From an uncultured Gammaproteobacteria bacterium (GTDB lineage Bacteria > Patescibacteriota > Patescibacteriia > UBA9934), in contig CAYPWV010000001.1 of NCBI GenBank assembly GCA_964414795.1, positions 5,221 through 69,220 of the forward strand: 64,000 nt of DNA. Direction: 5' to 3'. Both the position numbers and the translations under genes were made by a program. Below, piece after piece: positions 6,683 through 62,613 of this stretch (positions are counted from its first letter, which is position 1; each line of letters starts with the position of its first letter). The notes under the pieces are model-generated. The model made no database searches, was not told the DNA's origin, and saw only the letters and a program-made list of their open reading frames with translations.

Positions 6683-6704
6683 ATGGGGGAAGTATAGCAC
6701 TTCC

Positions 6705-7313
6705 CTACTTCCTTCTATACGCAGTTGCGAGGGCATCGGCGTATTCGTTCCAGCGATTGCCTGCGTGCGCCTTGATCCACTGGAGCGTTATTTCGGGGCG
6801 ATCTTCAAGCAGTGCATGTAACTCTTGCACAAGTTCTAAGTTTTTAATCTCTCCTTTTGATCCTTTTGCTCGTCTCCAGCCCAGCAATTTCCATTTATGA
6901 ATCCAGGTATTGAACGTATTTACACATAATTCACTGTCGGTATACACGACTGTTGTAACGCCACGCGGAACCAATCGACATGCCGCAAGAAGCCCCGTAA
7001 GTTCCATTCGATTATTTGTGGTGTGCGGTTCGTGTCCGCATTCTTCTGCAATAATTTCGTTATCAACCACATACACCGCTCCCCAACCTCCGGGTCCTGG
7101 ATTTGGGTCTGCAGATCCATCAGTAAACACGCCGGACATCGGACCAGCGATATATTTTTCTAGCACCTCAGCTTTTGAAAAATTCTTTTCTCGTGCAGAA
7201 GAAAATTTCTTACAATTCATGCACGTGCTTGGATTCCATCCAGGAAACTTTGCAAGCGTTGCCGCAGGAAAAGAAAACGCTTTATTGCACACTTTGCAGA
7301 GAAATGAGGACAT
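6705..7313 (-). CDS. rnhA: Ribonuclease HI with N-terminal zinc-ribbon
   Basis: TDGSADPNPGPGGWGAV, NNRMELTGLLAA, YTDSELCVNTFNTWIHKWK, AHAGNRWNEYADALA are RNase H catalytic motifs. Confidence 0.85.
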   Translation of the reverse strand: MSSFLCKVCNKAFSFPAATLAKFPGWNPSTCMNCKKFSSAREKNFSKAEVLEKYIAGPMSGVFTDGSADPNPGPGGWGAVYVVDNEIIAEECGHEPHTTNNRMELTGLLAACRLVPRGVTTVVYTDSELCVNTFNTWIHKWKLLGWRRAKGSKGEIKNLELVQELHALLEDRPEITLQWIKAHAGNRWNEYADALATAYRRK

Positions 7314-11198: not shown

Positions 11199-12278
11199 CT
11201 AAAGTATTTCAAGCGCATCATGCACAATGCGTTCATCGGCGTTTACGGGGAAGATACGACGAATGCGTTCGGCGTGTTCCTGACGATAAGCAGTTGATTG
11301 CACCATTTTGAGGATAGCCTGGAGAAGTACTTGAGGTGTCATTTGGTAGATTACTTCAGCAGCTTCTTGCGCCTGCAGTGCTTTGGCATTTTCTTCTTGT
11401 TGTGATCCCGGAATGGGAATGATAATGGATGGCTTACCAAGCGCTACAAGCTCGGAAATAGTCCCCATGCCCGCACGAGAAACCACCACATCAGCAACCG
11501 CGTACGCATCTGCCATACCTTCATGCAAAAATTCAAGTGCGATATACGGTTTTCCTTGCTCTTGAAATGTCTGTAACGCAGGGAGCATTTTTCCTCGACC
11601 GGTTAAATGAATAACATTCGCGCAGCGTAAAAGATCTTCTGCAATAATAAGCATCGTTTCATTGAGCGAGGATGCTCCTGTTCCGCCACCCATAACAAGC
11701 ACGGTGGGAAGATCGGCACGCAAAACGTAGCGATCGCGCGCACTTACCCGATCGCCCAGCGCCAACATGCTGCGCACCATCGTTCCCACTACGCTTGTTT
11801 TTTTTGCCGCATACGCTGCAGTACTTTCTGGCCACGTGACGCTTATACGTTTTGCAAAAGGCGCCATGATGCGATTTGCAAGCCCCGGGCGCACATCAAG
11901 TTCGTGAATCCATACCGGAATACGCATACACCACGCCACTAAAACAACAGGCAGAGAAACATACGCTCCCGCAGAAAAAACCATGTCGGGACGCATGTTT
12001 TTAAGTATTTTTGCGGCTTGCCACACACTCCACATCATGTGAAAAGGAATGAAGGGATACGTCCACTTGCGATAGCGATCCATACGAGGAGCAGAAAGCG
12101 AAAGAAAAGGAATTTTCGCACCCTCAACAAGCAGTCGTTCGGGACCTTTTGGCGTACCGATCCACGAACACCGCACATCCGGATCGCGCCTGCGCCACTG
12201 CGCCGCAACCGAAAGCAAGGGCGTTACCGGCCCAAGCGTTCCCCCGCCCGTGAAGAGAATGTGATGAGAAGAAGACAT
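11199..12278 (-). CDS. murG: Undecaprenyl-PP-MurNAc-pentapeptide UDP-GlcNAc transferase (GT28)
   Basis: N-terminal GGGTLGP glycine motif, VMGGGTGASSLN C-terminal donor-binding motif. Lies in the murG-ftsW-mraY neighbourhood. Confidence 0.75.
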   Translation of the reverse strand: MSSSHHILFTGGGTLGPVTPLLSVAAQWRRRDPDVRCSWIGTPKGPERLLVEGAKIPFLSLSAPRMDRYRKWTYPFIPFHMMWSVWQAAKILKNMRPDMVFSAGAYVSLPVVLVAWCMRIPVWIHELDVRPGLANRIMAPFAKRISVTWPESTAAYAAKKTSVVGTMVRSMLALGDRVSARDRYVLRADLPTVLVMGGGTGASSLNETMLIIAEDLLRCANVIHLTGRGKMLPALQTFQEQGKPYIALEFLHEGMADAYAVADVVVSRAGMGTISELVALGKPSIIIPIPGSQQEENAKALQAQEAAEVIYQMTPQVLLQAILKMVQSTAYRQEHAERIRRIFPVNADERIVHDALEIL

Positions 12279-12280
12279 AG

Positions 12281-12497
12281 GTGAGAGTGTGAAGTTTGTA
12301 GTTGTTAGTTTGAAGTGAGTGGATGTTGTTTTTTATTGGAATGAAAGACAGCAGACGACAGATGGGGAAAGTAATCGGGGCTGTATTGTATTTAGGTGAG
12401 CAGATCATTTCTCTTATCCGTCGTCTGCTGTCTGTAGTCTGCTATCTCAAAAGAACTACCTTTCACTTCAAACTAACAACTACAAACTTCAAACCTT
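12281..12497. repeat. Family C long palindromic element (~215 bp; arms AGTTTGAAGTGAAAGG.../...CCTTTCACTTCAAACT, core GACAGCAGACGACAGA.../...TCTGTCGTCTGCTGTC)
   Basis: Nested inverted repeats seen directly. It starts 3 nt after the murG start codon (its 5'-UTR side) and overlaps the last codons of pyrG. Confidence 0.75.
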
Positions 12498-14114
12498 TCC
12501 CAAAGCTGCCTTCACAAATCCCACAAACAACGGATGCGGCGACAAAGGACGCGATTGAAACTCTGGATGAAATTGTACTCCTACAAAAAATGGATGATCT
12601 TTCAGCTCGACGATTTCCACTAACGTTCCGTCGGGAGAAATGCCCGAGATCACGAGACCCGCACGTTCTAGCTCGGTTTTATACGCGTTATTAAACTCGT
12701 ACCGATGGCGATGACGTTCTGAAATCTCATCACTTCCATACGCATTTCTCGCAACGCTTCCCTTCTTGAGATTGCACACATACGAACCTAAACGCAGTGT
12801 TCCTCCCAATCCTTTTCCTTTCAGCTTTTCATCTTGTCCGTGCATTAAATGAATAACGGGATGTGCGGTTTTTGGATTTATCTCCTCTGTATGCGCATCC
12901 TTCCATCCCAGCTCCGTACGTGCAAACGCAATCACTGCACACTGCATACCGTAACACAATCCCAAATACGGAATCTTATGCTTTCGCACAAAGGTGATCG
13001 CCGCAATCTTTCCCTCAATTCCTCGCGATCCAAATCCTCCGGGAATAAGGATACCGTCGTACTGCAATAATTCTTCGAGTGCTTTGGGATCTTTTTCGTA
13101 GGCTTCGGCGTTGAGCCATTCGATAACTGGTTTTGCGTTTTGCGCCCACGCCGCGTGCTTAATTGCCTCAAGCACCGAAAGATAGGCGTCGGACAACAGA
13201 AAATCTCCTGTTGAAAAATACTTTCCAATAACGCCGATACGCACCTCCTTTTTTGCAGAAATAATCGTGGTTACCATCTTTTTCCACGCAACAAGATCGG
13301 GAGCTTTTTTGCGTTTTCCAAAGGATTTTAACACCGTGTCCGCAAAACCTTGTTCCTCAAACACCAACGGCACCTCATAAATAGAACGCACATTCGGTGC
13401 GGCGATGATATGATCGGGCGTTACTCCGCAAAACCTACTCAACTTTTCTCTTCGCGGCGCATCAAGCGCAGTTTCCGATCGACACAGCAAAAAATCAGGC
13501 GCAATACCTACGCGATTCATTTCACGCACCGCATGTTGTGTGGGCTTTGTTTTCATTTCGCCAATAGAAGGAGGCACGGGAAGATAACTCACAAGCACAC
13601 TGCGCACCTGCTTCGGCGTATGCAATTGCATCATGCGAATGGCTTCCAAAAAAAGAATATTTTCATATTCTCCCACCGTTCCCCCGACCTCAATCAACGT
13701 AAAATCTGCCTTTGCCTCTTTTGCTGCTCGCTCAATGCGTGCAATCACCTCTTCAGGAACGCGAGGAACCACCTCAACACATTTCCCCCCATATTCACCT
13801 CGCCGTTCACGCTCAATAACCGATAAATAAATACGCCCCGTGGTCATGTAATTCTTTTTGGTGATGTTGATATCTAAAAATCGTTCGTAGTTTCCAATAT
13901 CTTGATCCGTCTCATCCCCATCTACCGTTACAAAAACTTCCCCATGCTCAACCGGGTTCATCGTTCCCGCGTCGACGTTTACGTACGGATCAATTTTGAT
14001 TGCCGTCACCGTATATCCTCGCGCGCGAAGTAAAAGCCCCAGCGATGCTGTTGACGTTCCCTTTCCCACGCCACTCATCACGCCACCGACTACGAAGATG
14101 TATTTGTGTTGCAT
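12489..14114 (-). CDS. pyrG: CTP synthase
   Basis: MQHKYIFVVGGVMSGVGKGTSTASLG N-terminus, GATase domain with GLCYGMQ. Confidence 0.95.
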   Translation of the reverse strand: MQHKYIFVVGGVMSGVGKGTSTASLGLLLRARGYTVTAIKIDPYVNVDAGTMNPVEHGEVFVTVDGDETDQDIGNYERFLDINITKKNYMTTGRIYLSVIERERRGEYGGKCVEVVPRVPEEVIARIERAAKEAKADFTLIEVGGTVGEYENILFLEAIRMMQLHTPKQVRSVLVSYLPVPPSIGEMKTKPTQHAVREMNRVGIAPDFLLCRSETALDAPRREKLSRFCGVTPDHIIAAPNVRSIYEVPLVFEEQGFADTVLKSFGKRKKAPDLVAWKKMVTTIISAKKEVRIGVIGKYFSTGDFLLSDAYLSVLEAIKHAAWAQNAKPVIEWLNAEAYEKDPKALEELLQYDGILIPGGFGSRGIEGKIAAITFVRKHKIPYLGLCYGMQCAVIAFARTELGWKDAHTEEINPKTAHPVIHLMHGQDEKLKGKGLGGTLRLGSYVCNLKKGSVARNAYGSDEISERHRHRYEFNNAYKTELERAGLVISGISPDGTLVEIVELKDHPFFVGVQFHPEFQSRPLSPHPLFVGFVKAALGKV

Positions 14115-20264: not shown

Positions 20265-20267
20265 GGG

Positions 20268-20468
20268 AAGGAAAAGTTAGGAAGTTATTAGTTAGAAGCT
20301 TGAAGTGAAAGGTAGTTCCTTCGGGATAACAGACTACAGACAGCAAACGACAGATAAGAAATACCTGATTCTGATCACTTTCCCCATCTGCCGTCTGTAG
20401 TCTGCCGTCCTCACAAACAAAAACACCCTCCACTCACTTCAAACTACCGACTACAAACTTCAAACCCT
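20268..20468. repeat. Family C long palindromic element (full length)
   Basis: GAAGTGAAAGGTAGTTCC...GGAACTACC-like arms and GACAGCAAACGACAGA core. Lies between the divergent ctpA (starts 4 nt after the ctpA ATG) and PEGA genes. Confidence 0.75.
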
Positions 20469-20476
20469 TCCCTCCT

Positions 20477-30360: not shown

Positions 30361-32137
30361 ACAACGTTTCTTCGTTGAGGGTTATGACGGGAGTGAAAAT
30401 GATGTTTTCCTGCGCAAAGACGACGTCGTGGAGATACGCGAGATCTGATTGAGGAAACGTGATGCCGAAATAATAAAGCGGCGATGTAGCAAGAAGTTCG
30501 GGAATTGCGCGATATGTTTTTTCATCTCTCAACGGCACGATGACTGCACGATCGGGCCAGAGATATTTATCTGCACGATCGACAATAATGATTGCATCTT
30601 TGGGCGTAGATGCAAGAATGTTCGCTTGCTTTTCTGCAAACGTTGCAAGAGCTTCGCGCGTACGGAGCACGCCGTCATCACCTGTAAAGACGAGATGAGC
30701 TGAAAACAAAGTCATTCCTACGATACAAACAAGCGGGAGAGCGACGATGATCTTTTTCATCCATATCCTTTGCACGAACGAATGTGAAAAGTTTTTCACA
30801 TGGAGCAATGCATATGCCGTTGCAGGAGCAAGTGCTACAAACACCGGCAACCAATACCGCGTATGAGAATTTCCTAAAGAAATAATAGATGGATCGGGAT
30901 TATCAAAAAATGTCCAACTGCCGTAGAGAATGAGGAGGTAGAGGAGCGACACGGTGAGCAAAAGAAAAGAGACGGCAGAAGGCAGAAGGCAGAAAAGAAC
31001 TGTGAATTGAGAATGTCTGTCGTCTGCTGTCTGCTGTCTGTAAGCTCCAATCCATTTCTTCACAACCCCCCACACCAAACACCCCACACCCCCTACCCCC
31101 ACCACCGTCATCCACGGATACAACGCAAAAACATATCTCCACACGTTTTTCAGCGTTGCACGTTCATGAAATCCAAACGGAAAAAGAATGGCGAATACTT
31201 TTTCATACCACGGAATAATTGCACCTTGCGCAATGGTTCCGCCTACTTCCCATACCGGCTGACTCACCGTGTATCCCGTAATAAATGGCGATCCGTAGAT
31301 TGATGCATGCAAAAATAGCGTGATGCCAATCATGATTCCGCATCCTAAAAAGAGAGCGATGGCATCACAAAAAGACAGTTTTTTAGCGATGGATGCCTGC
31401 CTACCGGACAGGCAGGCCGGATCAAGTCCGACATGACGAGAAGCGAACCCCACGCCACGTCGTTCGCGAACGACGTGGCACCCCCAACACCCCACCCCCA
31501 ACACCCCTCCTATAATCCACACCCACTCAGAAGGACGAATTGCAAGTGCAGACGCAAACATGCCTCCTGCACAAAAAAGAAAAAAATATCGTGTACGCGA
31601 GTTCTCTTTCTTAATCGCCACAAGCACCATCCACACCGCAATCAACAACAGCGCAACAAAAGGCACGTTCGGCATAAGCGAACGGATACTGTAATACCAC
31701 CACGCCGGATGTACCGCGAGCGCAACAACACTCAGCAGCGCAAATTCCTGCGATCCACCCAAACGACGAATAATGCCGTACAGCGCACAAAGACCGAGGA
31801 TACAAAAAATCGGCCCCGTACTCACGGCAAGATACGGCGAAAAAAAGAAAAGTAATCCCGCAATGTACGGCATGCCCAAAAATCCTGCGGGGACGATTGC
31901 GGCACCGACCGTGGTTGTACTTCGCGGATGAAGCATGCCGTGCAAAGAAATGTTTCTCGCCTCATCACTTTTTGCAACGCCTGTTTCAGCGATGCTCTGC
32001 GCAAATGCCCATGTTGCATGTTCATCGGGCGAAACGAAGAGGTCATCGCGGGTTGCGTACGGAATCGCAAGAGAAAAAAGTGATGCACCGTAAGCAAGAG
32101 CAAGTGCTACGCAGGCAATTTTTTTAAGCGTGCTCAT
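30341..32137 (-). CDS. GT-C fold membrane glycosyltransferase (ArnT/PMT-like). It contains in-frame copies of repeat families A and C.
   Basis: Multi-TM N-terminal half with an early DE-containing loop (ATRDDLFVSPDE), large C-terminal soluble domain. Confidence 0.5.
   Translation of the reverse strand: MSTLKKIACVALALAYGASLFSLAIPYATRDDLFVSPDEHATWAFAQSIAETGVAKSDEARNISLHGMLHPRSTTTVGAAIVPAGFLGMPYIAGLLFFFSPYLAVSTGPIFCILGLCALYGIIRRLGGSQEFALLSVVALAVHPAWWYYSIRSLMPNVPFVALLLIAVWMVLVAIKKENSRTRYFFLFCAGGMFASALAIRPSEWVWIIGGVLGVGCWGCHVVRERRGVGFASRHVGLDPACLSGRQASIAKKLSFCDAIALFLGCGIMIGITLFLHASIYGSPFITGYTVSQPVWEVGGTIAQGAIIPWYEKVFAILFPFGFHERATLKNVWRYVFALYPWMTVVGVGGVGCLVWGVVKKWIGAYRQQTADDRHSQFTVLFCLLPSAVSFLLLTVSLLYLLILYGSWTFFDNPDPSIISLGNSHTRYWLPVFVALAPATAYALLHVKNFSHSFVQRIWMKKIIVALPLVCIVGMTLFSAHLVFTGDDGVLRTREALATFAEKQANILASTPKDAIIIVDRADKYLWPDRAVIVPLRDEKTYRAIPELLATSPLYYFGITFPQSDLAYLHDVVFAQENIIFTPVITLNEETLYAITRE
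30955..31040. repeat. Family C core motif (CAGACAGCAGACAGCAGACGACAGACA...) inside the GT-C CDS, in-frame
   Basis: Encodes ...LLPSAVSFLLLTV... with no stop codon. Confidence 0.6.
31386..31484. repeat. Family A palindromic element inserted in-frame in the GT-C CDS
   Basis: GCGATGGATGCCTGCCTACCGGACAGGCAGGCCGGATCAAGTCCGACATGACG plus a CCACGTCGTTCGCGAACGACGTGG palindrome. Translates as ...HVVRERRGVGFASRHVGLDPACLSGRQASIAKK... Confidence 0.7.
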
Positions 32138-32139
32138 AG

Positions 32140-32718
32140 CTAGAGCGAATAGGTGATGAGCGCAACGACCGCAAAAACAAGTGAAAGACCAAGCGTATAT
32201 TCTCCCGTTGCAATAAGCGCCGGTACTTCAAGTACAATACCAAGCAAGAGCAAACCAATGGACGTGCACTGCAACACCATTTTCGTTTTTCCCCACGCGT
32301 TCGCCATCATCACACCTCCGCTATACTTCTGTGATGCCCACCGCAACGACGGGAGAATGTCGAGAAAAATGGCAAAAAAGATCAGTGCCGGATGGTAATA
32401 TTTTAATCCTACAAGAAGTGCAACAGAACCTACGAGAAGCTTGTCGGCAATCGGATCAAAAAAGATTCCCCACGGAGTGATTTTATCTCGCACACGTGCA
32501 AGAGAGCCATCGATGACATCCGTAAACGCAGTTAACACAAAAAGAGGAACCGCAAGCAAATACCATTCGTTCGACAAAAACAACAATACGAAAGGCGTAA
32601 GCAGCATGCGCACAATGGTAACGTGATTTGGCTGAACAAACTCAGGAATAAAGGGTAAAACAACCGCTTTCATGAGCTTGTCATGCGGATATAAACGAGG
32701 TGCTTGTTTTTCAGGCAT
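32140..32718 (-). CDS. pgsA: CDP-alcohol phosphatidyltransferase (PgsA-like)
   Basis: DVIDGSLARVRDKITPWGIFFDPIADKLL matches the CDP-OH_P_transf motif. Confidence 0.7.
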   Translation of the reverse strand: MPEKQAPRLYPHDKLMKAVVLPFIPEFVQPNHVTIVRMLLTPFVLLFLSNEWYLLAVPLFVLTAFTDVIDGSLARVRDKITPWGIFFDPIADKLLVGSVALLVGLKYYHPALIFFAIFLDILPSLRWASQKYSGGVMMANAWGKTKMVLQCTSIGLLLLGIVLEVPALIATGEYTLGLSLVFAVVALITYSL

Positions 32719-32731
32719 ACTCTATGAAAAG

Positions 32732-34795
32732 ATGGTAACAGAATCTATGCGCCGTGTCTTTCTTGCTCTCACGTTTCTTTCCTGCGTTTCTCTGCTGGGA
32801 TCTGCGGTTTATTATACAAGCATCATTACACCAGGAACGCTCGTGCTGGCAACTTTAGGGGCGCTCTTGGTGACAGCGGGAATGGATCACTTCTTCGTCA
32901 TCCCGGATCAAGTCCGGCATGACGAAAAACAAAAAAACAAGATGACCGATACGGTGATCCGCCACTACGTTCTCTTCCTCATCGGTCTCTCCTCCCTCAT
33001 CATCTTTGTCTTCCTCGCGATCACCCATCCCATCACTACTGCTACCCGATCACTCTGGCTCCTCTTTTCTCCGACACACATTGTATTTTTGACGATCGCG
33101 TTTTTTTGTACGATTTTATTATATAAAAAACAAGAGGGCGGATACGTTGATCCGCCCCTACACGATCGACCGCCGCGGTACGCGGCGATTCTTGGCGGTC
33201 TGATTGCATTCGTCACGTCTGCACTTGCGGCGATACTCTTTCCACTAGGATTTGGATTCGATCCTTTTCTTCATCGCGCAACACTCGAGCACATCGCAAC
33301 ATTCGGAACCATCACGCCAAAACCACTGTATTACATCGGTGCGTACGCTCTTGAACTTTGTGGAAATCTTTTGCTTCGTATTCCATTATTTTCTCTTGAT
33401 GTTTTTTTGGCTCCAGTTGGATTTGCGTTTCTCGTTTTTATTGCAGTCCGTAGCAAGCAATTGCATCCCGCAATCCTCGCACTCCTTCCCTTTTCTGCAT
33501 TCGTGAGCACAACGCCGCAAGCCATAGGATTTTTGTGGATTTTTGCCGTGATTCTTGCGTTGAAAAATAATCTTCCGCAGTTGTATCTTTGGCTTTTTGC
33601 ACTTGCCGCACTTGCCGCGCATCCTATTGCCGGCGTTCCGGCGGTGATTTTGGTAACGATCTATTGTCTGTTGAACACGAAACGGAACAAAACGAACCAC
33701 GACAAGGTGGCCGATACGGTGATCGGCCACTACGGATCTATTCTTACCACCATTTTCATTATTCTCGGCATCCTCGCACTTCCGCTCATGTTCTTTGCGC
33801 AGCAGCTCATTACCGGCATGAACGTAGGATTTTCTTGGGTAGCGTTTACGGATTTTTCTCGCATTCCTTCTCTTGGATTTTTCTCGATGCAGGGACATGC
33901 GCTCATGGATACCGTCATGCTGTTTGGTGGAAATGTTTTTTTCATCACGGTGATTCTTGCAATTATTGGATTCATCGTGACTTTGGGTCAACGAAAAATC
34001 AATGCTAGATCTTTCGCACAATCACTCGCACTTTTGCTTGCAAGTATCGTTGCACTGGGTAACTTTGTGATGCTCAGTTTAGGATTTGATTTTCCGTTTC
34101 TCATTTCGTACGAACGTACCGATTTTGCGTTGCGACTGGTAACGATTGCGTGGATATTTCTTTTGCCCCTTGCGTCGGATGGAATGAAAAGGATTATAGG
34201 AATTGTGACGGAATGGAAATTACGCAAATCAGAAACACGATATTTAGAATCACATAGGGACGAATTGAGGACGTACGGGCGGGTTTTAAACCCGCCCCTG
34301 CATACGCGTCTAAAAAATGCCTACGGCATTTTACTCATTCTCATCCTTTTCTCCGCAAATATTTACACCACCTTTCCTCGACACGATGGCTACACGCGAT
34401 CGGCGGCGTTCAATGTTACTGTCGCAGATACCGAAATCGTCCACCGCATTGCCGATGATGCTGCAGGTGAATCCTACGCCGTACTCAGCAATCAAACGCT
34501 TGCTTCGATGGCTATCCAAGAATTTGGCTTTTTCCAGTACTTTCATAACAACATCTTCGCCTACCCCATCCCTACCAGCGGCCCACTCTACACGCTCTTT
34601 CTTACCATGATTACAACTCCCAATCTTGAAACTATTGCACAAGCTCACGATCTCACCGGCGCATCTCGCATCTACTTCGTGGTGCACAACTACTGGTGGG
34701 AAGCCGATCTTCGCATTGCCGAAACAAAAAAAATCGCAGACGCATATTTCACGTCTGCTGATGGAACGATTACCGTATTTGTCTTTTCCAGATAA
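32732..34795 (+). CDS. Large polytopic membrane protein of unknown function (about 690 aa). It has an internal protein-level duplication and in-frame copies of three different repeat families.
   Basis: More than 12 predicted TM helices. Start inferred at MVTESMRRVF. Repeats at 32896-32923 (A), 33136-33157 (F) and 34277-34297 (E) are all translated without stops. Confidence 0.5.
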   Translation: MVTESMRRVFLALTFLSCVSLLGSAVYYTSIITPGTLVLATLGALLVTAGMDHFFVIPDQVRHDEKQKNKMTDTVIRHYVLFLIGLSSLIIFVFLAITHPITTATRSLWLLFSPTHIVFLTIAFFCTILLYKKQEGGYVDPPLHDRPPRYAAILGGLIAFVTSALAAILFPLGFGFDPFLHRATLEHIATFGTITPKPLYYIGAYALELCGNLLLRIPLFSLDVFLAPVGFAFLVFIAVRSKQLHPAILALLPFSAFVSTTPQAIGFLWIFAVILALKNNLPQLYLWLFALAALAAHPIAGVPAVILVTIYCLLNTKRNKTNHDKVADTVIGHYGSILTTIFIILGILALPLMFFAQQLITGMNVGFSWVAFTDFSRIPSLGFFSMQGHALMDTVMLFGGNVFFITVILAIIGFIVTLGQRKINARSFAQSLALLLASIVALGNFVMLSLGFDFPFLISYERTDFALRLVTIAWIFLLPLASDGMKRIIGIVTEWKLRKSETRYLESHRDELRTYGRVLNPPLHTRLKNAYGILLILILFSANIYTTFPRHDGYTRSAAFNVTVADTEIVHRIADDAAGESYAVLSNQTLASMAIQEFGFFQYFHNNIFAYPIPTSGPLYTLFLTMITTPNLETIAQAHDLTGASRIYFVVHNYWWEADLRIAETKKIADAYFTSADGTITVFVFSR
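32896..32923. repeat. Family A minimal palindrome (CGTCATCCCGGATCAAGTCCGGCATGACG) in-frame in CDS
   Basis: Encodes FFVIPDQVRHDEK. Confidence 0.6.
33136..33157. repeat. Family F hairpin repeat GGGCGGATACGTTGATCCGCCC (in-frame in CDS; second copy at 63841-63862)
   Basis: Seen directly; encodes EGGYVDPPL. Confidence 0.6.
34277..34297. repeat. Family E hairpin repeat GGGCGGGTTTTAAACCCGCCC (in-frame in CDS; other copies at 42514-42536 and 47696-47716)
   Basis: Perfect palindrome seen directly; encodes GRVLNPPL. Confidence 0.65.
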
Positions 34796-35298
34796 AAAAA
34801 GTGGGCCCGGAGAAACTCTGCTAGAGAGTCCCTTCCGAGCCCGAGAACGAGTTGTAGGCGGGTCGCTTTGGATCCCCTGCCTACTTCACAGTTGAGTCCT
34901 CGGGACTTTCGTCCCGAGGTTGGGGGCGTGTCTCGCCCCCGGGAAACGTCAGTTTGAGAAGGACGAGCATAAGGCCCATCCTTAAAGCGCTTTTCCTCAC
35001 CGAAGTGAGGAGCGTACCCTGGGTTTCCTCAAAACCCCCCAGGCCTAAGCGCATTACCGCAGGAGCGCATCTGCGTCCTCCCGCAGTTCCAGGAAAAATC
35101 TCCCAACTTTTTTGTCGCCGAGGCTAACCTCGGCGACTTTAGTCCCACTTATCTCGTACAGAGGACCATCTCGGGTCCTCTACGTATTCCCAGGCAAAAG
35201 TCCTTTTTTGGGGTGGCCAGCCCCAGTAACTTTCTTTGGCCTCTTACTCTCCTTTGCAGGAGTTTCGATGGCTTCCCCGAAGGGTTTCACCACCGTGT
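34794..35298 (-). ncRNA. Unclassified, highly structured non-coding RNA of about 500 nt with its own near-consensus promoter and intrinsic terminator
   Basis: Minus-strand TTGACA, 17-nt spacer, TATTAT at 35333-35305. No ORF of 60 aa or more on the transcribed strand. Dense GC-rich hairpins with UUCG (x2), GAAA and GCAA tetraloops on the minus strand. Terminal long stem-loop followed by ACUUUUUUU at 34794-34860. Confidence 0.45.
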
Positions 35299-35304
35299 AA
35301 GAAC

Positions 35305-35333
35305 ATAATAGCATATTTTTTCATTTTTGTCAA
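35305..35333 (-). promoter_or_regulatory. Near-consensus sigma-70 promoter (TTGACA, 17-nt spacer, TATTAT) driving the ncRNA
   Basis: Seen directly on the minus strand. An upstream hairpin terminator at 35375-35400 (AAAAGAGCCUCACCGCUCUUUUUU) insulates it from the GT4 operon. Confidence 0.55.
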
Positions 35334-35426
35334 AAGCGTGCCGGAAAAGAGGGCTAGAAAATAGCTTATATAAAACAAAAAAGAGCGGTGAGGCTCTTTT
35401 GGGAAATTTGAGGAATTTGTTGCATT

Positions 35427-35534
35427 CGTCATGCCGGACTTGATCCGGTCTGCCTGTCCGGTAGGCAGGCATCCATCGTTTTTAACCCCATCTTTCTTGA
35501 TGCGATGGATCCCGGGTCGGTGCCCGGGATGACG
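35427..35534. repeat. Family A palindromic element, full-length intergenic copy (CGTCATGCCGGACTTGATCCGG...CCGGGTCGGTGCCCGGGATGACG)
   Basis: Terminal inverted repeats and internal palindromes seen directly. Confidence 0.75.
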
Positions 35535-35540
35535 AAAAGC

Positions 35541-36764
35541 CTATAAAATCACTTTTTCTTTACGCTTTTCGATAACCGCTACAAGAGTTTCGGTGAGCTT
35601 GGTGGCGTAGGTTTCGAGGGCGTAATCTGAAATGCTTGCGCGGATTTCTTCGCGGCGCTCGGCGAAATCTTCTTTGCGGCGATCAACTTCTTGCACAACA
35701 CGCTTTAAATCTTCTTCATTTCCTGGAGTAAACAACATGCCCGTTTCACCTTCGCACAAAAGCTCACCCACCCCCCCAATCTGTGAAGCAATAACTGGTA
35801 CACCTGCCATTAATGACTCGTAGATCACCGTAGGAGAGTTTTCGTAGCAAAGTGAAGGAACGATAAGCGCATCAACAACACTAAACACATTTGCAAGCTC
35901 TTCGGGAGGCGTGTAGCCCAAAAACACGATGCGCTTATCTTGCGCGGCCATGGTTTCAACCTCGCTCTTCATAGGCCCTGCTCCTGCAACATACAACCGC
36001 ACATCGCCGGTAAAGCGCTTGAGCGCATCAAGAAGGAACGCAAGACCTTTATGCTTTCCGAGCTGTCCTACAAACAACAACTTTAACGGTCCGCCCGAAC
36101 GTCCTTTTCTTTTATTCTCTGCATAGTTTGGCGCAGGATTCTGCATCACCATGCGCTCACTTTTTGGAAAAAACTTGTGTGCGTCGTACACGTCTTTTAA
36201 ATAACGCGAAGGAAAAATAACCAAATCGGGATTATCAAACTTTTGTTTGCACACCATGCGATATGCGCCGTACGCAATCTTTTGCAAAATATTTTGCTTT
36301 TCCTGTCCAAACATCAACAGACCCGAAGGAACGATAAGCTGCAAATCGTGCGCCACATGCACGTGAGGAATGTGCAGATCGGCAATAACGCTTGGGATAT
36401 TGAGACCGATGCCTTTGAGATTATGCGTGATGACCACGTCGGGCTGTTCGTCGCGCAAAATGGCGCGTATATGCTCGGCACCGTGCCAAGAAAGGGCATC
36501 GCGTACATGCCAAAAAAAACGAGTAAGCCAGGGATATTTGTAATCGTCAAGCGTAAAGTAAAAGTTACGCGGGAAAAATCGGTAAATGCGCTCGGTGCTT
36601 GACCGGTCGAGCACGACTTTTGTACCCAAACGCTTGGGGTGCCCGGTAATCACAAACACATCGTGCCCCATAGCCATAAGCTGGCCAACGGTGCGCACAA
36701 TAACGTTTTCTGCTCCTCCGCGCGAAAAAGGAGGATAGAGATTGGTGATAATCCCAATTTTCAT
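35541..36764 (-). CDS. Glycosyltransferase family 4 (GT-B, group 1)
   Basis: MKIGIITNLYPPFSRGGAE N-terminus, C-terminal E-x7-E region (GVGELLCEGETGMLF). Confidence 0.8.
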   Translation of the reverse strand: MKIGIITNLYPPFSRGGAENVIVRTVGQLMAMGHDVFVITGHPKRLGTKVVLDRSSTERIYRFFPRNFYFTLDDYKYPWLTRFFWHVRDALSWHGAEHIRAILRDEQPDVVITHNLKGIGLNIPSVIADLHIPHVHVAHDLQLIVPSGLLMFGQEKQNILQKIAYGAYRMVCKQKFDNPDLVIFPSRYLKDVYDAHKFFPKSERMVMQNPAPNYAENKRKGRSGGPLKLLFVGQLGKHKGLAFLLDALKRFTGDVRLYVAGAGPMKSEVETMAAQDKRIVFLGYTPPEELANVFSVVDALIVPSLCYENSPTVIYESLMAGVPVIASQIGGVGELLCEGETGMLFTPGNEEDLKRVVQEVDRRKEDFAERREEIRASISDYALETYATKLTETLVAVIEKRKEKVIL

Positions 36765-37909: not shown

Positions 37910-38090
37910 AGGTAGGGAAAGTTTGAAGTTTGGAGTTGGTAGTTTGAAGTGAAAGGATGTTCTGTTTTAGCGTGTCATCCTGAGGGAGTGCTACGTCGAC
38001 CGAAGGAACTTCCAGACGACAGACTGCAGAAGGCAGATGGGGAAAATGAAAGAACTGAGAGAACTGAGAGTGAGGATGGCATTAGTTAGT
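37910..38090. repeat. Family C element (left arm and core) with a nested family B half-copy (37968-38020)
   Basis: AGTTTGAAGTTTGGAGTTGGTAGTTTGAAGTGAAAGGATG arm is identical to the copy at 52305. The right arm is missing. It starts 3 nt after the GT4 start codon. Confidence 0.7.
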
Positions 38091-51063: not shown

Positions 51064-52302
51064 CTATTGTATCGCCTCCGTATAGATGCCAAAAAGACCC
51101 TCCCAATGTTTATCCGGATCCCCTACCGCTATCCCTCGTACAGCGGCCTGGAGACGCATCTCTTGCACAGCGGAGGCGTTTTTATCGCCTTCAGAAGCAA
51201 GGAGAAAACGGATGTGTTTCTCCCACACATCAAGCGCATCCGGATGCTCCACAAACCCTGAAATGCCATGCTCCACAATCTCCGATAATCCCCCTTCGCT
51301 GCTCACGATTACGGGAGTTCCCAGCGACAATGACTCAAGCCCAACAAGACCAAAAGGCTCAGGCCACCGCGACGGCACAATAACGCCTGCCGCATGCTTG
51401 ATCATCTCCCAAAGTGCTTGAGGCGTTTGCACAGAAAGTACAGAAAGATTTTTTCTCTTGGCTGCAAGTTTGCGAAGCGGTTCTTCCTGAGCGCCATGAC
51501 CTACACATACAAACGTAACGTCCGGCATACGCACCACCAGCTCCATAAGTACATCAACGCCTTTATACGTTTCAAAACGACTAGCGAAAATAATTTGGGG
51601 GATACGATGTGTTCGTACGGGCGGAACATTTTCCGCCCCTACAGATGCTCCCGATGGCAACGGCAACACACGAATATTCATAGCGCGATACCCCCCATCA
51701 GTGAGTGCTTTTTTTACGGCATGCGATGCGGTGAGAATGTGCGTTACACCTTGCGTCCACATACCACACCTTTTTTGCACACGGACGACCGCATCCACAA
51801 CGCCCGTTGCAAACGCCGAATTTTTTATGCATTTCGTTCTCACCACGTCGCGCCACGACGCGTGCGCAGACAACGGACCCACGCCATCAAACAATCCGTA
51901 ATTTGCGCTGATATATCCGTAATCGTGCGCCGTGAGCACCACGGGAACACCCGCATCTTTTGCAGCACTCAGCACTGACGGCGAGAGATGTGTGTATAGA
52001 TTATGCGCGTGAATGACATCGGGCTTGAACGCAGCAATTATTGCGCGTGTTTTTTTATACGCTTCGTAACTCCAGAGTGTTCTTCCTAATTGTCGCAACG
52101 CCTGTATCCCCTTCCCCACGCCTGAGGTTTCAAGATTGCTTACAAAAAAATGCTCCCACGGTGAAGTATTATTTTCCGGATGATGCATGGCGAGCACGGC
52201 CGTTGCGTGGCCATGTGCATCCGCCAGGCGCATCACATCGTGCATATATCTCCCCACGCCATCGCGTTCGTGGTTGTATTTGTTAATGTGGAGAATGCGC
52301 AT
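51064..52302 (-). CDS. Glycosyltransferase family 4
   Basis: MRILHINKY...GVGRY N-domain, EPFGLVGLESLSLGTPVI C-domain motif. Confidence 0.8.
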   Translation of the reverse strand: MRILHINKYNHERDGVGRYMHDVMRLADAHGHATAVLAMHHPENNTSPWEHFFVSNLETSGVGKGIQALRQLGRTLWSYEAYKKTRAIIAAFKPDVIHAHNLYTHLSPSVLSAAKDAGVPVVLTAHDYGYISANYGLFDGVGPLSAHASWRDVVRTKCIKNSAFATGVVDAVVRVQKRCGMWTQGVTHILTASHAVKKALTDGGYRAMNIRVLPLPSGASVGAENVPPVRTHRIPQIIFASRFETYKGVDVLMELVVRMPDVTFVCVGHGAQEEPLRKLAAKRKNLSVLSVQTPQALWEMIKHAAGVIVPSRWPEPFGLVGLESLSLGTPVIVSSEGGLSEIVEHGISGFVEHPDALDVWEKHIRFLLASEGDKNASAVQEMRLQAAVRGIAVGDPDKHWEGLFGIYTEAIQ

Positions 52303-52304
52303 AG

Positions 52305-52508
52305 GGGAGAGTTTGAAGTTTGGAGTTGGTAGTTTGAAGTGAAAGGATGTTTTTTTTGTTGGATGAAGATGAAAGACAGCAGACTACAGACGACAGATTA
52401 GTGAAGTGATCAGAATCAGATATCTTTCATCTGTCGTCTGCTGTCTGTATTCTGTTATTTCAAAGGAACTACCTTTCACTTCAAACTCTTAACTTATAAC
52501 TTCACACC
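52305..52508. repeat. Family C long palindromic element (full length)
   Basis: Arms AGTTTGAAGTTTGGAGTTGGTAGTTTGAAGTGAAAGGATG / GGAACTACCTTTCACTTCAAACTC. Core GACAGCAGACTACAGACGACAGA / TCTGTCGTCTGCTGTCTG. It starts 3 nt after the GT4 start codon and overlaps the Wzy-like gene stop. Confidence 0.75.
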
Positions 52509-54038
52509 TTCCCCATCATCACTCTTCACCCTCGACACCACAAAGCCACACAACACCCACACATACGGTGCCATGGTGCGGACTTCGAAAAAAGTGGCGA
52601 GGAAGGCGTTGAGGGAAAAAGCAACGAGAATTGCTGCCGTGGCTCCGGCAACGGCGCGAATGTCTTTATCTTCGTGATGGAGTGCGGTATGCACACACAA
52701 TAAAAACAAACTGATATAAAACCACAGAAAAGCGCCTAGTCCGATAATTCCAAGCTCGCCCCACAAACTCAACCAATTGTTATCAATATATCCGCCGGTT
52801 CCGTACACACCAAAAGGCAAACTTAAGCGATCGTACACGAGTGTATTCCCCAGTGCCGCAGCCGCACCACCTCCATACTGTCCAGGACCCACACCAAACA
52901 ACGGCGATGACGGCACCACGGTAAGCACGGTTTCCACAACCCAATAGAGGCGACCAAACCCGACATATTCCCCCCGCCAACGTTCGTAAGAAAATGCTTC
53001 AAAGAAACGTTCCGCAACCGTCTGCTCCGGAGTATCGGTAAGCGTGTTTACGAGAAGATTGCTGCCGAAGATGTAGGCCGCTAAAAGAAACGGTGCGATC
53101 ATTGCACACCACAACACGCGCTTATCTTTTTTAAGGAAAATGGCGTAGAAAAGAAAAGCGAGCAAAAATCCAAACCATGCAGAACGCGAATACGTTAACA
53201 CGAGCACAGGAATACCTAGCGCAAGAAGAACCATGCACGCTATTTTTGCCTGCTTTCCTAAACGCTTATCGTATAAAAAGGCAATGGTGAGCAAAAATAC
53301 GAGCGCCAAAAAAATACCCAACTGATCGTAACGCCCCATGGTGCCAAACACACGCTGCCCAGGATCCCAAAATTGATCGGTGCCTTCGGTGAGTTGGATG
53401 TTGCCGAGTGTTCTACGTTCTGAGGGGAGCAAAAAAGCATCGAATGATCCACCAGCAATAGCCTGCAATCCACCGATGGCAACTTGGATGCCCGCAACGG
53501 TTATCAAAATAATCAACAGTGATTTCATCCATTGTTTTGAAGGGGCAAGTTGCACTACGACAAAAAACAAAAGTAAGAAACGAATAAGCTGCCGCGCGCC
53601 AAGGAGCGCAATTGCCGGATCAATAACGTTCACCACAACAGACGCAACAATGGCTACCAAAAAAAAGAAAAATGGTGCATCAAGTGCTGAACGCTTCCAT
53701 TTCTTCTCATGCCAAAACATGTGCAAGAGCACTGACGCTACAAGCATGTACACCACAAGCTCAGAACCATAGCGCGCAAGGACATACACTTCATCGGGAA
53801 TCCACTTCAAAATAAACGGCTCAAACGGCAAATACGCAAGCAATCCCAAAAGCACCTGCTGCGGACGCCACCAGGCAAGTGCAATAAGCGCAACTCCTGC
53901 CGTAAGCGCAATCGTTACTGCGGGAGACGTGAATAACGACAAAAATAATGCACCGCCCACAATGGCAAATAGCACGATCATGGCAATGCGTGCCTTGGTA
54001 TCTGCAAGAAGGATATGAAGGTGAAGATGTTGCCGCAT
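52494..54038 (-). CDS. O-antigen ligase/polymerase family (Wzy-like) membrane protein
   Basis: About 12 TM helices. LTYSRSAWFGFLLAF motif is typical of the Wzy_C / O-antigen ligase domain. Confidence 0.65.
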   Translation of the reverse strand: MRQHLHLHILLADTKARIAMIVLFAIVGGALFLSLFTSPAVTIALTAGVALIALAWWRPQQVLLGLLAYLPFEPFILKWIPDEVYVLARYGSELVVYMLVASVLLHMFWHEKKWKRSALDAPFFFFLVAIVASVVVNVIDPAIALLGARQLIRFLLLFFVVVQLAPSKQWMKSLLIILITVAGIQVAIGGLQAIAGGSFDAFLLPSERRTLGNIQLTEGTDQFWDPGQRVFGTMGRYDQLGIFLALVFLLTIAFLYDKRLGKQAKIACMVLLALGIPVLVLTYSRSAWFGFLLAFLFYAIFLKKDKRVLWCAMIAPFLLAAYIFGSNLLVNTLTDTPEQTVAERFFEAFSYERWRGEYVGFGRLYWVVETVLTVVPSSPLFGVGPGQYGGGAAAALGNTLVYDRLSLPFGVYGTGGYIDNNWLSLWGELGIIGLGAFLWFYISLFLLCVHTALHHEDKDIRAVAGATAAILVAFSLNAFLATFFEVRTMAPYVWVLCGFVVSRVKSDDGEGVKL

Positions 54039-57856: not shown

Positions 57857-57943
57857 ATCGTTCGTATTGAGGTGCTGTCAAGGGATAGTCGCCTTTTTCT
57901 TTATGCGATGGATCCCGGGTCAAGCCCGGGATGACAGGACTTA

Positions 57944-61002: not shown

Positions 61003-61416
61003 TGGTGGACCCGGGGGGAATTGAACCCCCATCCGTACCACATTCTCCAAAACTCTTTCTTCCAAGCTCATTCGCGTTTAAACGGTTAACGTCTTTTTCG
61101 GTCGAGAAACACGACGAACAGTGAAACCGACGATCATGCAGCAAGAGTCCCGGGCGTAAGGCATGATGCTCACACACAGCAAGTCAGAGATTTATTGCAT
61201 GACGGTGTTATGTACTGACGACATAACGGTCATGGGTGGCGGCGTTATTACGCGGCGACCGGAGCAAATGAGAACGCGCGAGTCGCCGAAGCGAAAGCGG
61301 TCTTCATTTGTGAAAATACGTTTGCATGTACTTTCTGAGGCGTGTGATGACGCGGAACGCCTCGTCCGCGGCTTGAGAGGGATTGGGAATGTAGACGTCG
61401 AAAGCCTAGCAGGCCC
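61003..61416 (-). ncRNA. ssrA: tmRNA (SsrA)
   Basis: 3' tRNA-like end GGGGGUUCAAUUCCCCC-CGGGUCC-ACCA. The 5' GGGCCUGCUAGGCUUUCGACG pairs with the 3' acceptor strand (with two G-U wobbles) and resembles the E. coli 5' end. Internal reading frame GCA AAC GUA ... CCG GUC GCC GCG UAA UAA. Convergent with smpB. Confidence 0.8.
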
Positions 61417-62473: not shown

Positions 62474-62559
62474 ATCACAAGATCCTGAGCTCGGCGAAGG
62501 ATCTAGCGAACGAATAAGAGATATCTGACAAATGGGTTCTCTGGACCCTTCCTATCGTC

Positions 62560-62600
62560 AGGGTCTTTCCATTCACTTCAAACTCTTAACTTCATACTTC
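62560..62600. repeat. Family C right-arm remnant (CACTTCAAACTCTTAACTTCATACTTCAACC)
   Basis: Matches the right arm of the copy at 52470-52508. Lies between rpmI and rplT. Confidence 0.55.
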
Positions 62601-62613
62601 AACCTCTCTCCAT

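Follow-up and report, generated by a model that had tools for sequence, protein, structure and literature searches.

The RNAs of the ROOL, GOLLD, OLE and raiA classes are patchily distributed non-coding RNAs (ncRNAs) with their own promoter and terminator and many tetraloop-capped helices, built around a conserved multi-junction core with abundant covariation. A chain of hairpins between a strong promoter and an intrinsic terminator, with poor conservation of the primary sequence, is also the layout of the CsrB/RsmZ sponge RNAs. RNase P RNA has GC-rich helices with GNRA and UUCG caps. ORF-less group IIC introns are structured, non-coding, patchy and about 600 nt long, and insert directly downstream of terminators. 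Finally, REP/BIME elements and the Rickettsia-type RPE place GC-rich hairpins between convergent genes, and their presence varies between strains. Here we describe a locus which shares features with each of these systems: a predicted ncRNA gene of ~505 nt, similar in length to RNase P RNA, on the minus strand of a Patescibacteria genome, flanked by two genes for the cell envelope. Patescibacteria genomes are tiny and densely coding. To our knowledge, almost no lineage-specific RNAs have been described for this group, and a literature search for large ncRNAs in Patescibacteria/CPR found nothing relevant.

The window, that is, the whole stretch of DNA that was analysed, is 64 kb long. The intergenic gap which holds the locus spans 745 bp (34796-35540), with a convergent ORF for a 707-aa membrane protein on one side and a GT4 gene on the other. 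The features in and around this gap are:

34794..35298, minus strand: predicted primary transcript, an ncRNA of ~505 nt with 55% GC and an MFE z-score of -8.8
35305..35333, minus strand: sigma-70-type promoter, with TTGACA (35333-35328), a 17-nt A-rich spacer, TG (35313-35312) and TATTAT (35310-35305)
35266..35295, minus strand: hairpin 1 of the 5' module, CGGUGG...CCAUCG enclosing CCC-UUCG-GGG, compared with the copies L161 and L004 (see below)
35249..35262, minus strand: hairpin 2 of the 5' module, CUCCU-GCAA-AGGAG after CAUCG, compared among the window, L161 and L004
34843..35248, minus strand: variable body, ~10 GC-rich hairpins in a chain, with many perfect stems of 7-10 bp and the caps UUCG, GAAA and UUAG
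34794..34842, minus strand: predicted terminator of the transcript, a 17-bp two-part hairpin followed by U7, as read from the sequence
34726..34758, minus strand: second terminator-like hairpin with a T-run, within the final codons of the 707-aa ORF that converges on the locus
35379..35400, minus strand: intrinsic terminator that closes the GT4 operon upstream, AAAAGAGC-loop-GCUCUUUU, also found at empty orthologous sites
35426..35533, no strand assigned: pair of small palindromic repeats lying past the GT4 stop codon and before the terminator, outside the RNA and given for context only

A sequence-only reading of this DNA had proposed a self-contained, structured ncRNA gene which it could not assign to a known class, and the elements on which it built are in place. 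The TTGACA-17-TATTAT promoter lies on the minus strand at 35333-35305, as it had indicated, matches 11 of the 12 consensus positions and carries an extended -10 TG. We place the start of transcription at ~35298, 7 nt past the -10, and the 3' end within the U-run at 34800-34794, and the transcribed 5' end reads UUACACGGUG. The intrinsic terminator expected to end at about 34794 is a long hairpin (34842-34803, GGGCUCGGA.GGGACUCU-CUAGC-AGAGUUUC.UCCGGGCCC) followed by seven U at 34800-34794, which adjoin the stop codon of the convergent ORF. The upstream hairpin terminator was found as well, at 35400-35379. This AAAGAGC/GCUCUUU hairpin is the sole intergenic element at empty orthologous sites, which indicates that the terminator of the GT4 operon is ancestral. 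The hairpin at 34726..34758 may be a backstop terminator, or a coincidence of the conserved KKI..AD..SA codons.

Counts of signals did not exceed those in shuffled sequences, neither for promoter-like sites (one found vs 2.1±1.4 expected) nor for terminator-like sites (five vs 3.2±2.1). The near-consensus promoter is kept in hosts that share only 65-67% identity in the flanking proteins, and is nearly identical in the L004 and L161 copies. In two other Patescibacteria MAGs, the same 25-mer serves as the promoter of protein genes. A scan of a genome collection with the promoter 23-mer matched only protein-gene promoters, in one Saccharibacteria MAG and one Paceibacteria MAG, and the promoter is therefore generic rather than specific to the RNA. 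With its own promoter, an intrinsic terminator and no conserved ORF, the locus has the general make-up of a free-standing ncRNA gene.

The transcript is predicted to fold at -237.6 kcal/mol, compared with -186.5±5.8 kcal/mol for shuffles (z = -8.8), and the GC content of the locus (0.55-0.57) is above that of its flanks (~0.47). The four copies known to us are all richer in GC (55-56%) than their own loci (47-51%), with fold z-scores of -8.8 for the window copy and -4.0 for each of the others. All the tetraloop caps listed by the sequence-only reading for the minus strand, UUCG twice and GAAA and GCAA once each, are present. Strand specificity is weaker than it had implied, as a stable fold is predicted for the plus strand too (z = -6.2). 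The sense fold is favoured over the antisense fold by 28 kcal/mol in the window copy, whereas in L004 the antisense fold is slightly better, so the strand asymmetry is inconsistent among copies. The reading had also seen no credible ORF, which agrees with our results: no ORF in the gap exceeds 62 aa and none is conserved at homologous loci. A coding role was rejected, since the copies have no peptide in common in any frame. Similarity between L004 and L161 is equal across all frames, stops included, and a search with a spurious 94-aa ORF called inside the L004 copy matched only itself.

Thirteen orthologous sites were recovered in relatives. A comparable insert in the gap between the membrane-protein and GT4 genes was present only at L004, together with the same promoter and 5' motif, and at L073, where a GC-rich structured insert is partial as the contig ends inside it. 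At 10 of the 13 sites the insert is absent: nine are empty, and at L006 the gap is filled by an unrelated 448-aa gene. The latter was considered as a reverse transcriptase or transposase gene, which was rejected as it has no Pfam domain. A fuzzy promoter scan revealed the fourth copy, L161, at another position, upstream of the same GT4 gene and between two GT4 genes that are normally co-transcribed. Every copy is co-oriented with, and directly beside, the same GT4 gene. A metagenome scan anchored on the neighbouring membrane protein covered 80 more distant loci and found the insert in none. Overall, the RNA gene occurs in about one third of close relatives, and the pattern of similarity between copies deviates from the host tree.

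What the copies have in common lies mainly at their ends. The promoter and a 5' module of ~50 nt with two hairpins are conserved in the window and L161, and partly in L004. The 5' 43 nt of L161 align to the window copy with a score of 31, compared with a null of 20.4±2.5 and a null maximum of 30. Hairpin 1 keeps its outer stem in L161, with the tetraloop swapped from UUCG to GCAA, and is absent in L004. Hairpin 2 with the preceding CAUCG is the best-kept transcribed motif in the window, L161 and L004, with an invariant stem and a variable loop.

At the other end, L004 and L161 have a 3' domain of 170 nt in common, predicted to form a three-way junction. The 3' 105 nt of L161 are 85% identical to L004 (E = 7e-21), and the same junction appears in two independent single-sequence folds, one for each copy. 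All 45 pairs are kept in both, and the four paired changes are all of the G-C/G-U type. Differences fall in four of the 90 paired columns vs 11 of the 34 unpaired ones (Fisher p = 1e-4), and all 35 gap columns are unpaired. A covariance model of the domain scores 164-218 bits in sense and 14-25 bits in antisense orientation; it detects neither the window copy nor L073. No compensatory double substitution with statistical weight was found in this domain. Its 3' strand GAACYC has two alternative pairing partners, the distant GGGUUCGG and a local GGGUUC that directly precedes the U-run. For the window copy, the 5' arm of the terminator (GGGCUCGG-AA-GGGACU-CUCUAG) resembles, by eye only, the closing helices of the L004/L161 domain (GGGUUCGG-UC-GGAACU-UCUAG). 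Apart from the promoter, the window copy has in common with the others only ~50 nt of 5' sequence and perhaps the terminal hairpin.

The body between these ends paints a different picture. No significant similarity in sequence or consensus structure was detected between the window body and those of L004, L161 and L073: its ~450 nt are unalignable, with local scores within the null and global z-scores of 1.8-2.1. A consensus fold of the window and L161 bodies with z = -4.9 was discounted, as it consisted of scattered short helices on a sequence-based alignment. The central segments of L004 and L161 likewise gave no consensus structure (SCI 0.07-0.16, z > 0), and k-mer enrichment over three copies peaked at z ~4-6, for GC-rich words such as GCGCUU, with no recurrent 5-7-mer above that. 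The search in related genomes suggested by the sequence-only reading brought to light three related copies but no compensatory covariation and no partner for the window body.

The Rfam check which that reading had also advised gave no significant family match. At the gathering score, the locus is unmatched in the 64-kb window. With permissive filters and a cut-off of E<10, a 1-kb stretch around the locus as well as L004 and L161 returned chance matches only, e.g., to the terminator-like ncS54. The tmRNA of the window, at 61003-61416, was confirmed where the reading had located it. Its tentative assignment to an unusual RNase P RNA was rejected, as no model matched at E<10, the locus is missing at most orthologous sites and the CR-I/CR-V pair of P4 is lacking. 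The failure of the reading to find the P4 consensus was borne out: a CR-I-like string occurs in the window (AGAAAGUUACUGGGG, RNA position 66) and another in L004 (GAGAAAGUCUGGG, position 312), at non-equivalent positions, and reading both sequences gave no complementary CR-V-like strand. In contrast to RNase P RNA, the locus is patchy and its bodies are unalignable between hosts that are 78-85% identical. These two properties argue that it is not a housekeeping RNA.

The suggested likeness to large ornate RNAs such as ROOL, GOLLD and OLE extends to size (0.5-0.65 kb), promoter, terminator, caps and patchiness, but finds no support in the body, which has no alignable or structurally conserved counterpart. 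Instead of a conserved multi-junction core, the RNA has conserved ends and an unalignable hairpin chain in the middle. Furthermore, it matches none of the Rfam models of ROOL, GOLLD, OLE and raiA at E<10 (nor that of HEARO), is known from four copies only, and has no link to phages or tRNA genes, which was looked for. Like ORF-less group IIC introns, it sits directly downstream of an AAAGAGC...GCUCUUUUUU terminator (in the window and L004, and also in L073); at L161, no terminator context is visible. Unlike these introns, it has its own promoter and lacks a GUGYG 5' end, domains V/VI and an Rfam group II match; no bulged hairpin resembling domain V is seen. From the REP/BIME and RPE elements it differs in that its hairpins are unrepeated in the 64-kb window and stand between a promoter and 5' module that are both conserved on one side and a terminator on the other, and from the CsrB/RsmZ RNAs in that the copies show no enrichment of a recurrent loop or linker motif.

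That the models miss a divergent member of some known class (RNase P, SRP, 6S, group I/II intron, ROOL/GOLLD/OLE/raiA/HEARO) is, in view of these comparisons, highly improbable. The size range and the tetraloop-capped helices would fit, the two CR-I-like strings recall RNase P, and the site, directly past a terminator hairpin, is reminiscent of group IIC introns. Nevertheless, three copies searched at this permissive threshold matched none of the listed families, the RNase P and intron hallmarks are incomplete as described, and a housekeeping RNA would not go missing or diverge past alignment at 78-85% host identity. Another explanation would be that small palindromic DNA elements (REP/BIME-, MITE- or RPE-like) have piled up in a permissive gap, with RNA structure as a by-product. 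The genome does hold several GC-rich repeat families, with three members inside the neighbouring ORF and two just upstream of the locus, many stems of the window body are perfect Watson-Crick palindromes which fold on both strands, and hairpin density is far higher in the window (z = -8.8) than in the other copies (~-4). We still regard a pile-up as improbable, as the body hairpins have no other copy in the 64-kb window (BLAST, word size 7), the inserts of L004, L073 and L161 are GC-rich and structured too, the array lies within a single transcription unit set by the promoter, 5' module and terminator, and the sense strand of the window copy is favoured by 28 kcal/mol. Small palindromic repeats abound in this genome and are inserted even in ORFs, so part of the exceptional hairpin content of the window copy could be secondary.

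Two further explanations concern the surrounding gene cluster. A selfish or recombination-shuffled non-coding cassette would be promoter-bearing DNA which moves within or between surface-glycan clusters, has no host function and mainly perturbs the transcription of its neighbours. Its distribution is indeed patchy and off the host tree, with the hosts of P0001, P0005 and P0010 filled and their nearest relatives, 84-89% identical, empty. A second insertion site (L161, between normally co-transcribed genes), conserved ends around a variable middle, several contigs that stop at or within the element, and the unrelated gene in the same gap of L006 all point in this direction. We nevertheless consider such a cassette rather unlikely. 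Comparing filled and empty sites by eye gave no convincing terminal inverted repeat or target-site duplication, the copy is single in the 64-kb window, and ~690 kb of related loci held none beyond the four. Collections of phages and plasmids gave no BLASTN match to the locus, and scans of viral contigs (promoter 18-mer, two body hairpins, 5' motif, two 3'-domain blocks) returned nothing or unrelated chance or coding matches. In addition, the unalignable middle of L004 and L161 argues against a recent transfer of the whole element, and the way in which substitutions are distributed in the 3' domain indicates selection on the RNA. As a cis-acting element of the glycan cluster, the locus would be, in the window, a convergent unit or structured insulator for the 3' end of the 707-aa gene or for antisense transcription, and in L161 a leader feeding GT4. 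This would suit the constant orientation directly beside the same GT4 gene, the U-run that adjoins the stop codon of the convergent gene, and the two alternative partners of GAACYC. Moreover, the plus strand has no good terminator before 35379-35400, so that a complementary 3' UTR of ~600 nt would be expected on the membrane-protein mRNA. However, in most relatives a gap of 45 nt with nothing but a bidirectional terminator is sufficient, the copies differ in their position relative to the target, interference needs no GC-rich body of 500-650 nt, and the two alternative 3' structures have the U-run at their end in common, which leaves no anti-terminator evident. This makes a role in cis quite unlikely.

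We therefore lean towards an independently transcribed, terminator-bounded ncRNA gene that belongs to a small new family, confined to one narrow Patescibacteria clade within the searched data. With four copies, one of them partial, the locus is a real but poorly supported candidate for such a family, and because no compensatory covariation accompanies these copies, it is a lead and not a discovery. The RNA may accumulate as a stable molecule acting in trans, in which the conserved end modules would make the functional contacts, probably with a protein or the ribosome, and the fast-evolving array of hairpins between them would be a nuclease-resistant spacer or scaffold. We regard the gene as accessory, with possible turnover by recombination inside a variable surface-glycan cluster. 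Such a turnover fits its presence in about a third of relatives, its two positions beside the same GT4 gene and a similarity that does not follow the host tree. A broader version of this reading, which we consider unlikely, is a new class of large accessory RNAs of Patescibacteria, with conserved end modules (the two hairpins at the 5' end and the three-way junction at the 3' end) and a fast-diversifying array of capped hairpins, exchanged or relocated within the surface-glycan gene cluster. If this were true, the accessory RNA-only gene could take part in host-symbiont or phage conflict, or alternatively could be an RNA scaffold with variable arms evolving like those of the yeast telomerase RNA.

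In genomes as tiny and densely coding as those of Patescibacteria, a strongly promoted ncRNA gene of 0.5 kb is unlikely to be neutral. If confirmed, the family would add a large structured RNA to this group, with an unusual layout of conserved ends, a hypervariable hairpin core and a patchy occurrence at two sites beside the same glycosyltransferase gene. For further members, concrete search models exist in the 5' module and the three-way-junction 3' domain.

The palindromic repeats next to the locus are part of several such GC-rich families in the window genome, of which three members lie in frame inside the neighbouring ORF and resemble RPE insertions. A word-7 BLAST of 34700-35560 against the window gave extra copies only for 35426-35533, at 31354-31439, 32903-32926 and 57896-57935, and none for the RNA body. 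L161 carries an inverted match of 9-10 nt (GTTGAGAAAG / CTTTTCAAC), which may be due to chance. The same organism also occurs in the environments of SRR16481186 and SRR16481187. Public assemblies of the same organism break at the 35426..35533 repeats.

The predicted RNA of about 505 nt, encoded on the minus strand between the convergent genes of a GT4 glycosyltransferase and a 707-aa membrane protein, is best read as the product of a genuine accessory gene that is transcribed independently and yields a structured RNA. This gene would belong to a small, undescribed family with four known copies, one of which is partial. In the window, the locus is laid out as follows:

35541, minus strand: end of the GT4 gene, upstream of the RNA locus
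35400-35379, minus strand: intrinsic terminator upstream of the RNA promoter
35333-35305, minus strand: RNA promoter, TTGACA, 17-nt spacer, TGcTATTAT (11 of 12 positions, plus extended TG)
34842-34803, minus strand: two-part 3' hairpin of 17 bp
34800-34794, minus strand: seven U after the 3' hairpin, adjoining the stop of the convergent 707-aa ORF

The promoter and both terminators proposed by the sequence-only reading were thus recovered. No second copy of the promoter turns up in the window when up to three mismatches are permitted. Two small palindromic repeats, which also occur elsewhere in the window, make up most of the ~140 nt after the GT4 gene. From about 35298 onward, where the GC content is 0.55-0.57 (vs about 0.47), the RNA is a chain of stable hairpins capped by UUCG (twice), GAAA, GCAA and UUAG. 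Its minimum free energy is -237.6 kcal/mol, compared with -186.5 ± 5.8 for dinucleotide shuffles (z = -8.8). The tetraloop-capped hairpins noticed earlier are present, but their supposed restriction to the minus strand is weaker, as the plus strand also folds well (z = -6.2). Folding favors the sense strand in the window copy and in those of the relatives' loci L073 (the partial copy) and L161, but not in that of L004. Promoter-like and terminator-like sites showed no excess over chance, and the significance of the locus rests on fold, composition and comparative data, not on site counts.

No known RNA family accounts for the locus. A permissively filtered Rfam search (E<10) of the surrounding 1-kb region returned only chance or terminator-like matches, and none to RNase P, SRP, 6S, group I/II introns, ROOL, GOLLD, OLE, raiA or HEARO. 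The two full-length relatives, L004 and L161, likewise lacked matches to these families. With no Rfam match in three copies, membership in RNase P or any of the other large RNAs named was rejected, which removes the earlier suggestion of an unusual RNase P RNA and agrees with the sequence-only reading, which could assign the locus to no known class. Phage and plasmid records held nothing similar, and a literature search found no such RNA described in Patescibacteria. The sole Rfam match in the whole window was the tmRNA at 61003-61416 (minus strand; full-length, 86 bits), while ARAGORN reported neither a tmRNA nor a tRNA in the 64 kb.

The locus sits in a gene cluster for cell-envelope glycosylation (GT4, GT4, GT2, epimerase, PMT_2-type transferase, CDP-alcohol phosphatidyltransferase), and homologues of the 707-aa protein carry the names Patescibacteria, Uhrbacteria and Parcubacteria, among others. 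The orthologous site was recovered in 13 relatives, which share 58-67% identity with the window in the membrane protein. In nine of them, the convergent genes lie 45-90 nt apart or overlap slightly. A bidirectional terminator with an AAAGAGC/GCUCUUU stem, as at 35400-35379, was the sole content of five of the six gaps read; the sixth (L074) is without this hairpin. In the relative's locus L006, the gap holds an unrelated 448-aa ORF (5939-7285, minus strand) with no Pfam domain, and therefore the gap content differs between relatives. The gap in L004 measures 800 bp and contains the AAAGAGC/GCUCUUU terminator and the promoter TTTTGACAAAAATGAAAAAAATATGCTA, followed by CAUCG..ACUCC-CGCAA-GGAG and some 600 nt of structured, GC-rich sequence. 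A GC-rich structured insert occupies the same place in L073, where the contig ends inside it. A metagenome scan gave 80 further loci, more distant ones, and in none of them did an insert follow the anchor gene.

The fourth copy, L161, came from a fuzzy promoter scan over ~690 kb of Patescibacteria DNA. Its canonical site is empty, and the RNA lies instead directly upstream of the GT4 gene, with the promoter TTTGACAAAAAACAAAAAATATGCTAATAT, then UUACACGGUGAGUGACCCGCAAGGAAAACCCAUCGAGACUCCUUUGGAGG. Its first 43 nt, collinear with the promoter, align to the window RNA with a score of 31 (null 20.4 ± 2.5, maximum 30). At the other end, 105 nt match the 3' end of L004 with 85% identity (E = 7e-21). 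L161 and L004 also have in common an identical 22-mer, AGGGUUCGGUCGGAACUUCUAG, and a mid-block hairpin (CUCC-GUAA-GGAG vs CCCC-GCAA-AGGG). Because L161 matches the window at its 5' end and L004 at its 3' end, it links these copies in one family.

Beyond the promoter, conservation is found in modules at both ends. In the 5' module, hairpin 1 has an outer stem common to the window and L161, its loop being UUCG in the former and GCAA in the latter; CAUCG follows, and in hairpin 2 the CUCC/GGAG stem is invariant and the loop varies. A 3' domain of 170 nt, present in L004 and L161 only, is predicted to form the same three-way junction when each sequence is folded on its own, with 45 of 45 pairs kept, and is constrained at the RNA level. 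All four stem substitutions are G-C/G-U on the sense strand, differences affect 4 of 90 paired vs 11 of 34 unpaired columns (Fisher p = 1e-4), and all 35 gap columns are unpaired. On the sense strand, a covariance model of the domain scores 164-218 bits, against 14-25 bits for the antisense strand. The 5' arm of the window terminator, GGGCUCGG-AA-GGGACU-CUCUAG, resembles the closing helices GGGUUCGG-UC-GGAACU-UCUAG, which would imply one U-A to C-G exchange; since the model does not detect the window terminator, we take this as resemblance only. In the 3' domain of L004 (5885-6026) and L161 (4385-4560, both minus strand), GAACYC before the U-run could pair either with the distant GGGUUCGG, closing the junction, or with a local GGGUUC, forming a small terminator hairpin; only one of the two folds can exist at a time.

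The central bodies do not match between copies. The best local alignments among the window, L004 and L073 fall inside the shuffle null, and global alignment z-scores are 1.8-2.1 for the window with L004 or L073 and -0.2 for L004 with L073. Between L004 and L161, the central segments are of similar length (140 vs 141 nt, 235 vs 238 nt), and sequence-based alignments gave no consensus structure (SCI 0.07-0.16). An apparent window/L161 body signal was discounted as scattered short helices. No recurrent short motif was enriched. The locus is non-coding: no peptide is common to the copies in any frame, and the L004-L161 similarity is equal across all six frames, stops included. On the best-supported reading, the end modules are functional, possibly as partner-binding sites, with a fast-evolving hairpin array between them, and the RNA would accumulate and act in trans.

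Three rival explanations are to be weighed against an RNA gene: a selfish or recombination-shuffled promoter cassette, a cis-acting element of the glycan cluster, and an accumulation of palindromic DNA elements.

As for the promoter, its 25-mer TTGACAAAAATGAAAAAATATGCTA, spacer included, stands identical before protein genes that are unrelated, in two further classes of Patescibacteria. When 596 Gb of genomes were scanned for the first 23 bases, these were the only instances:

35333-35309: window
L075 13-37 and L077 2072-2096 (loci from the 23-base scan): Saccharibacteria MAG
L076 4951-4975 (likewise): Paceibacteria MAG

Such an identical spacer is unexpected for a promoter and suggests either a strongly constrained phylum-wide form or horizontal spread. 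Other genes in the fetched loci are driven by similar A-rich-spacer promoters; together with the 25-mer before protein genes, this indicates a general strong promoter of the phylum and no signature of the RNA. Filled and empty sites, compared by eye, showed no convincing inverted terminal repeats or target duplications of the RNA locus, although L161 has an inverted match of 9-10 nt that may be chance; extra copies, within the 64 kb covered of the host genome, and viral links were searched for as well, and none was found. In the host-protein tree, filled sites (hosts of the proteins P0001, P0005 and P0010) are scattered among empty ones that are 84-89% identical to them. The closest pair of RNAs, L004 and L161, is from hosts 78% identical. 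The hosts of L073 and L161 are 85% identical, and the 3' part of L073 is unalignable. This patchy pattern points to repeated loss, or to exchange and relocation within this variable glycan cluster. The rival of accumulated palindromic elements gains some weight because the genome has many families of palindromic repeats, three of them inserted in frame in the adjacent ORF.

These in-frame insertions in the 707-aa ORF (32672-34795) are lineage-specific, absent from 14 homologues, and coincide with copies of families of small, GC-rich palindromic repeats, AAACAAGAGGGCGGATACGTTGATCCGCCCCTACA and GTACGGGCGGGTTTTAAACCCGCCCC. They are palindromic elements that entered a coding gene in frame, in the manner known from Rickettsia palindromic elements. 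A further, composite family of about 230 nt is MITE-like, with low GC and strong folds on both strands, and gives the top GC-corrected folding residuals in the window, the RNA locus and tmRNA aside. Another two small repeat elements are found between the stop codon of GT4 and the terminator of that gene, one with copies inside the PMT_2-type ORF and the 707-aa ORF. The repeats are:

33131-33169, 33686-33730, 34241-34315: in-frame insertions in the 707-aa ORF
17545, 17817, 32935, 42511, 47692, 63833: other copies of the AAACAAGAGGGCGGATACGTTGATCCGCCCCTACA/GTACGGGCGGGTTTTAAACCCGCCCC families
12276-12506, 20267-20476, 37910-38051, 52299-52517, 62559-62611: composite repeats of ~230 nt
35426-35511: repeat with copies at 31354-31439 (inverted, 80%) and 32903-32926
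35493-35533: repeat with a copy at 57896-57935

In public Logan assemblies of this organism, contigs break precisely at the 35426-35533 repeats.
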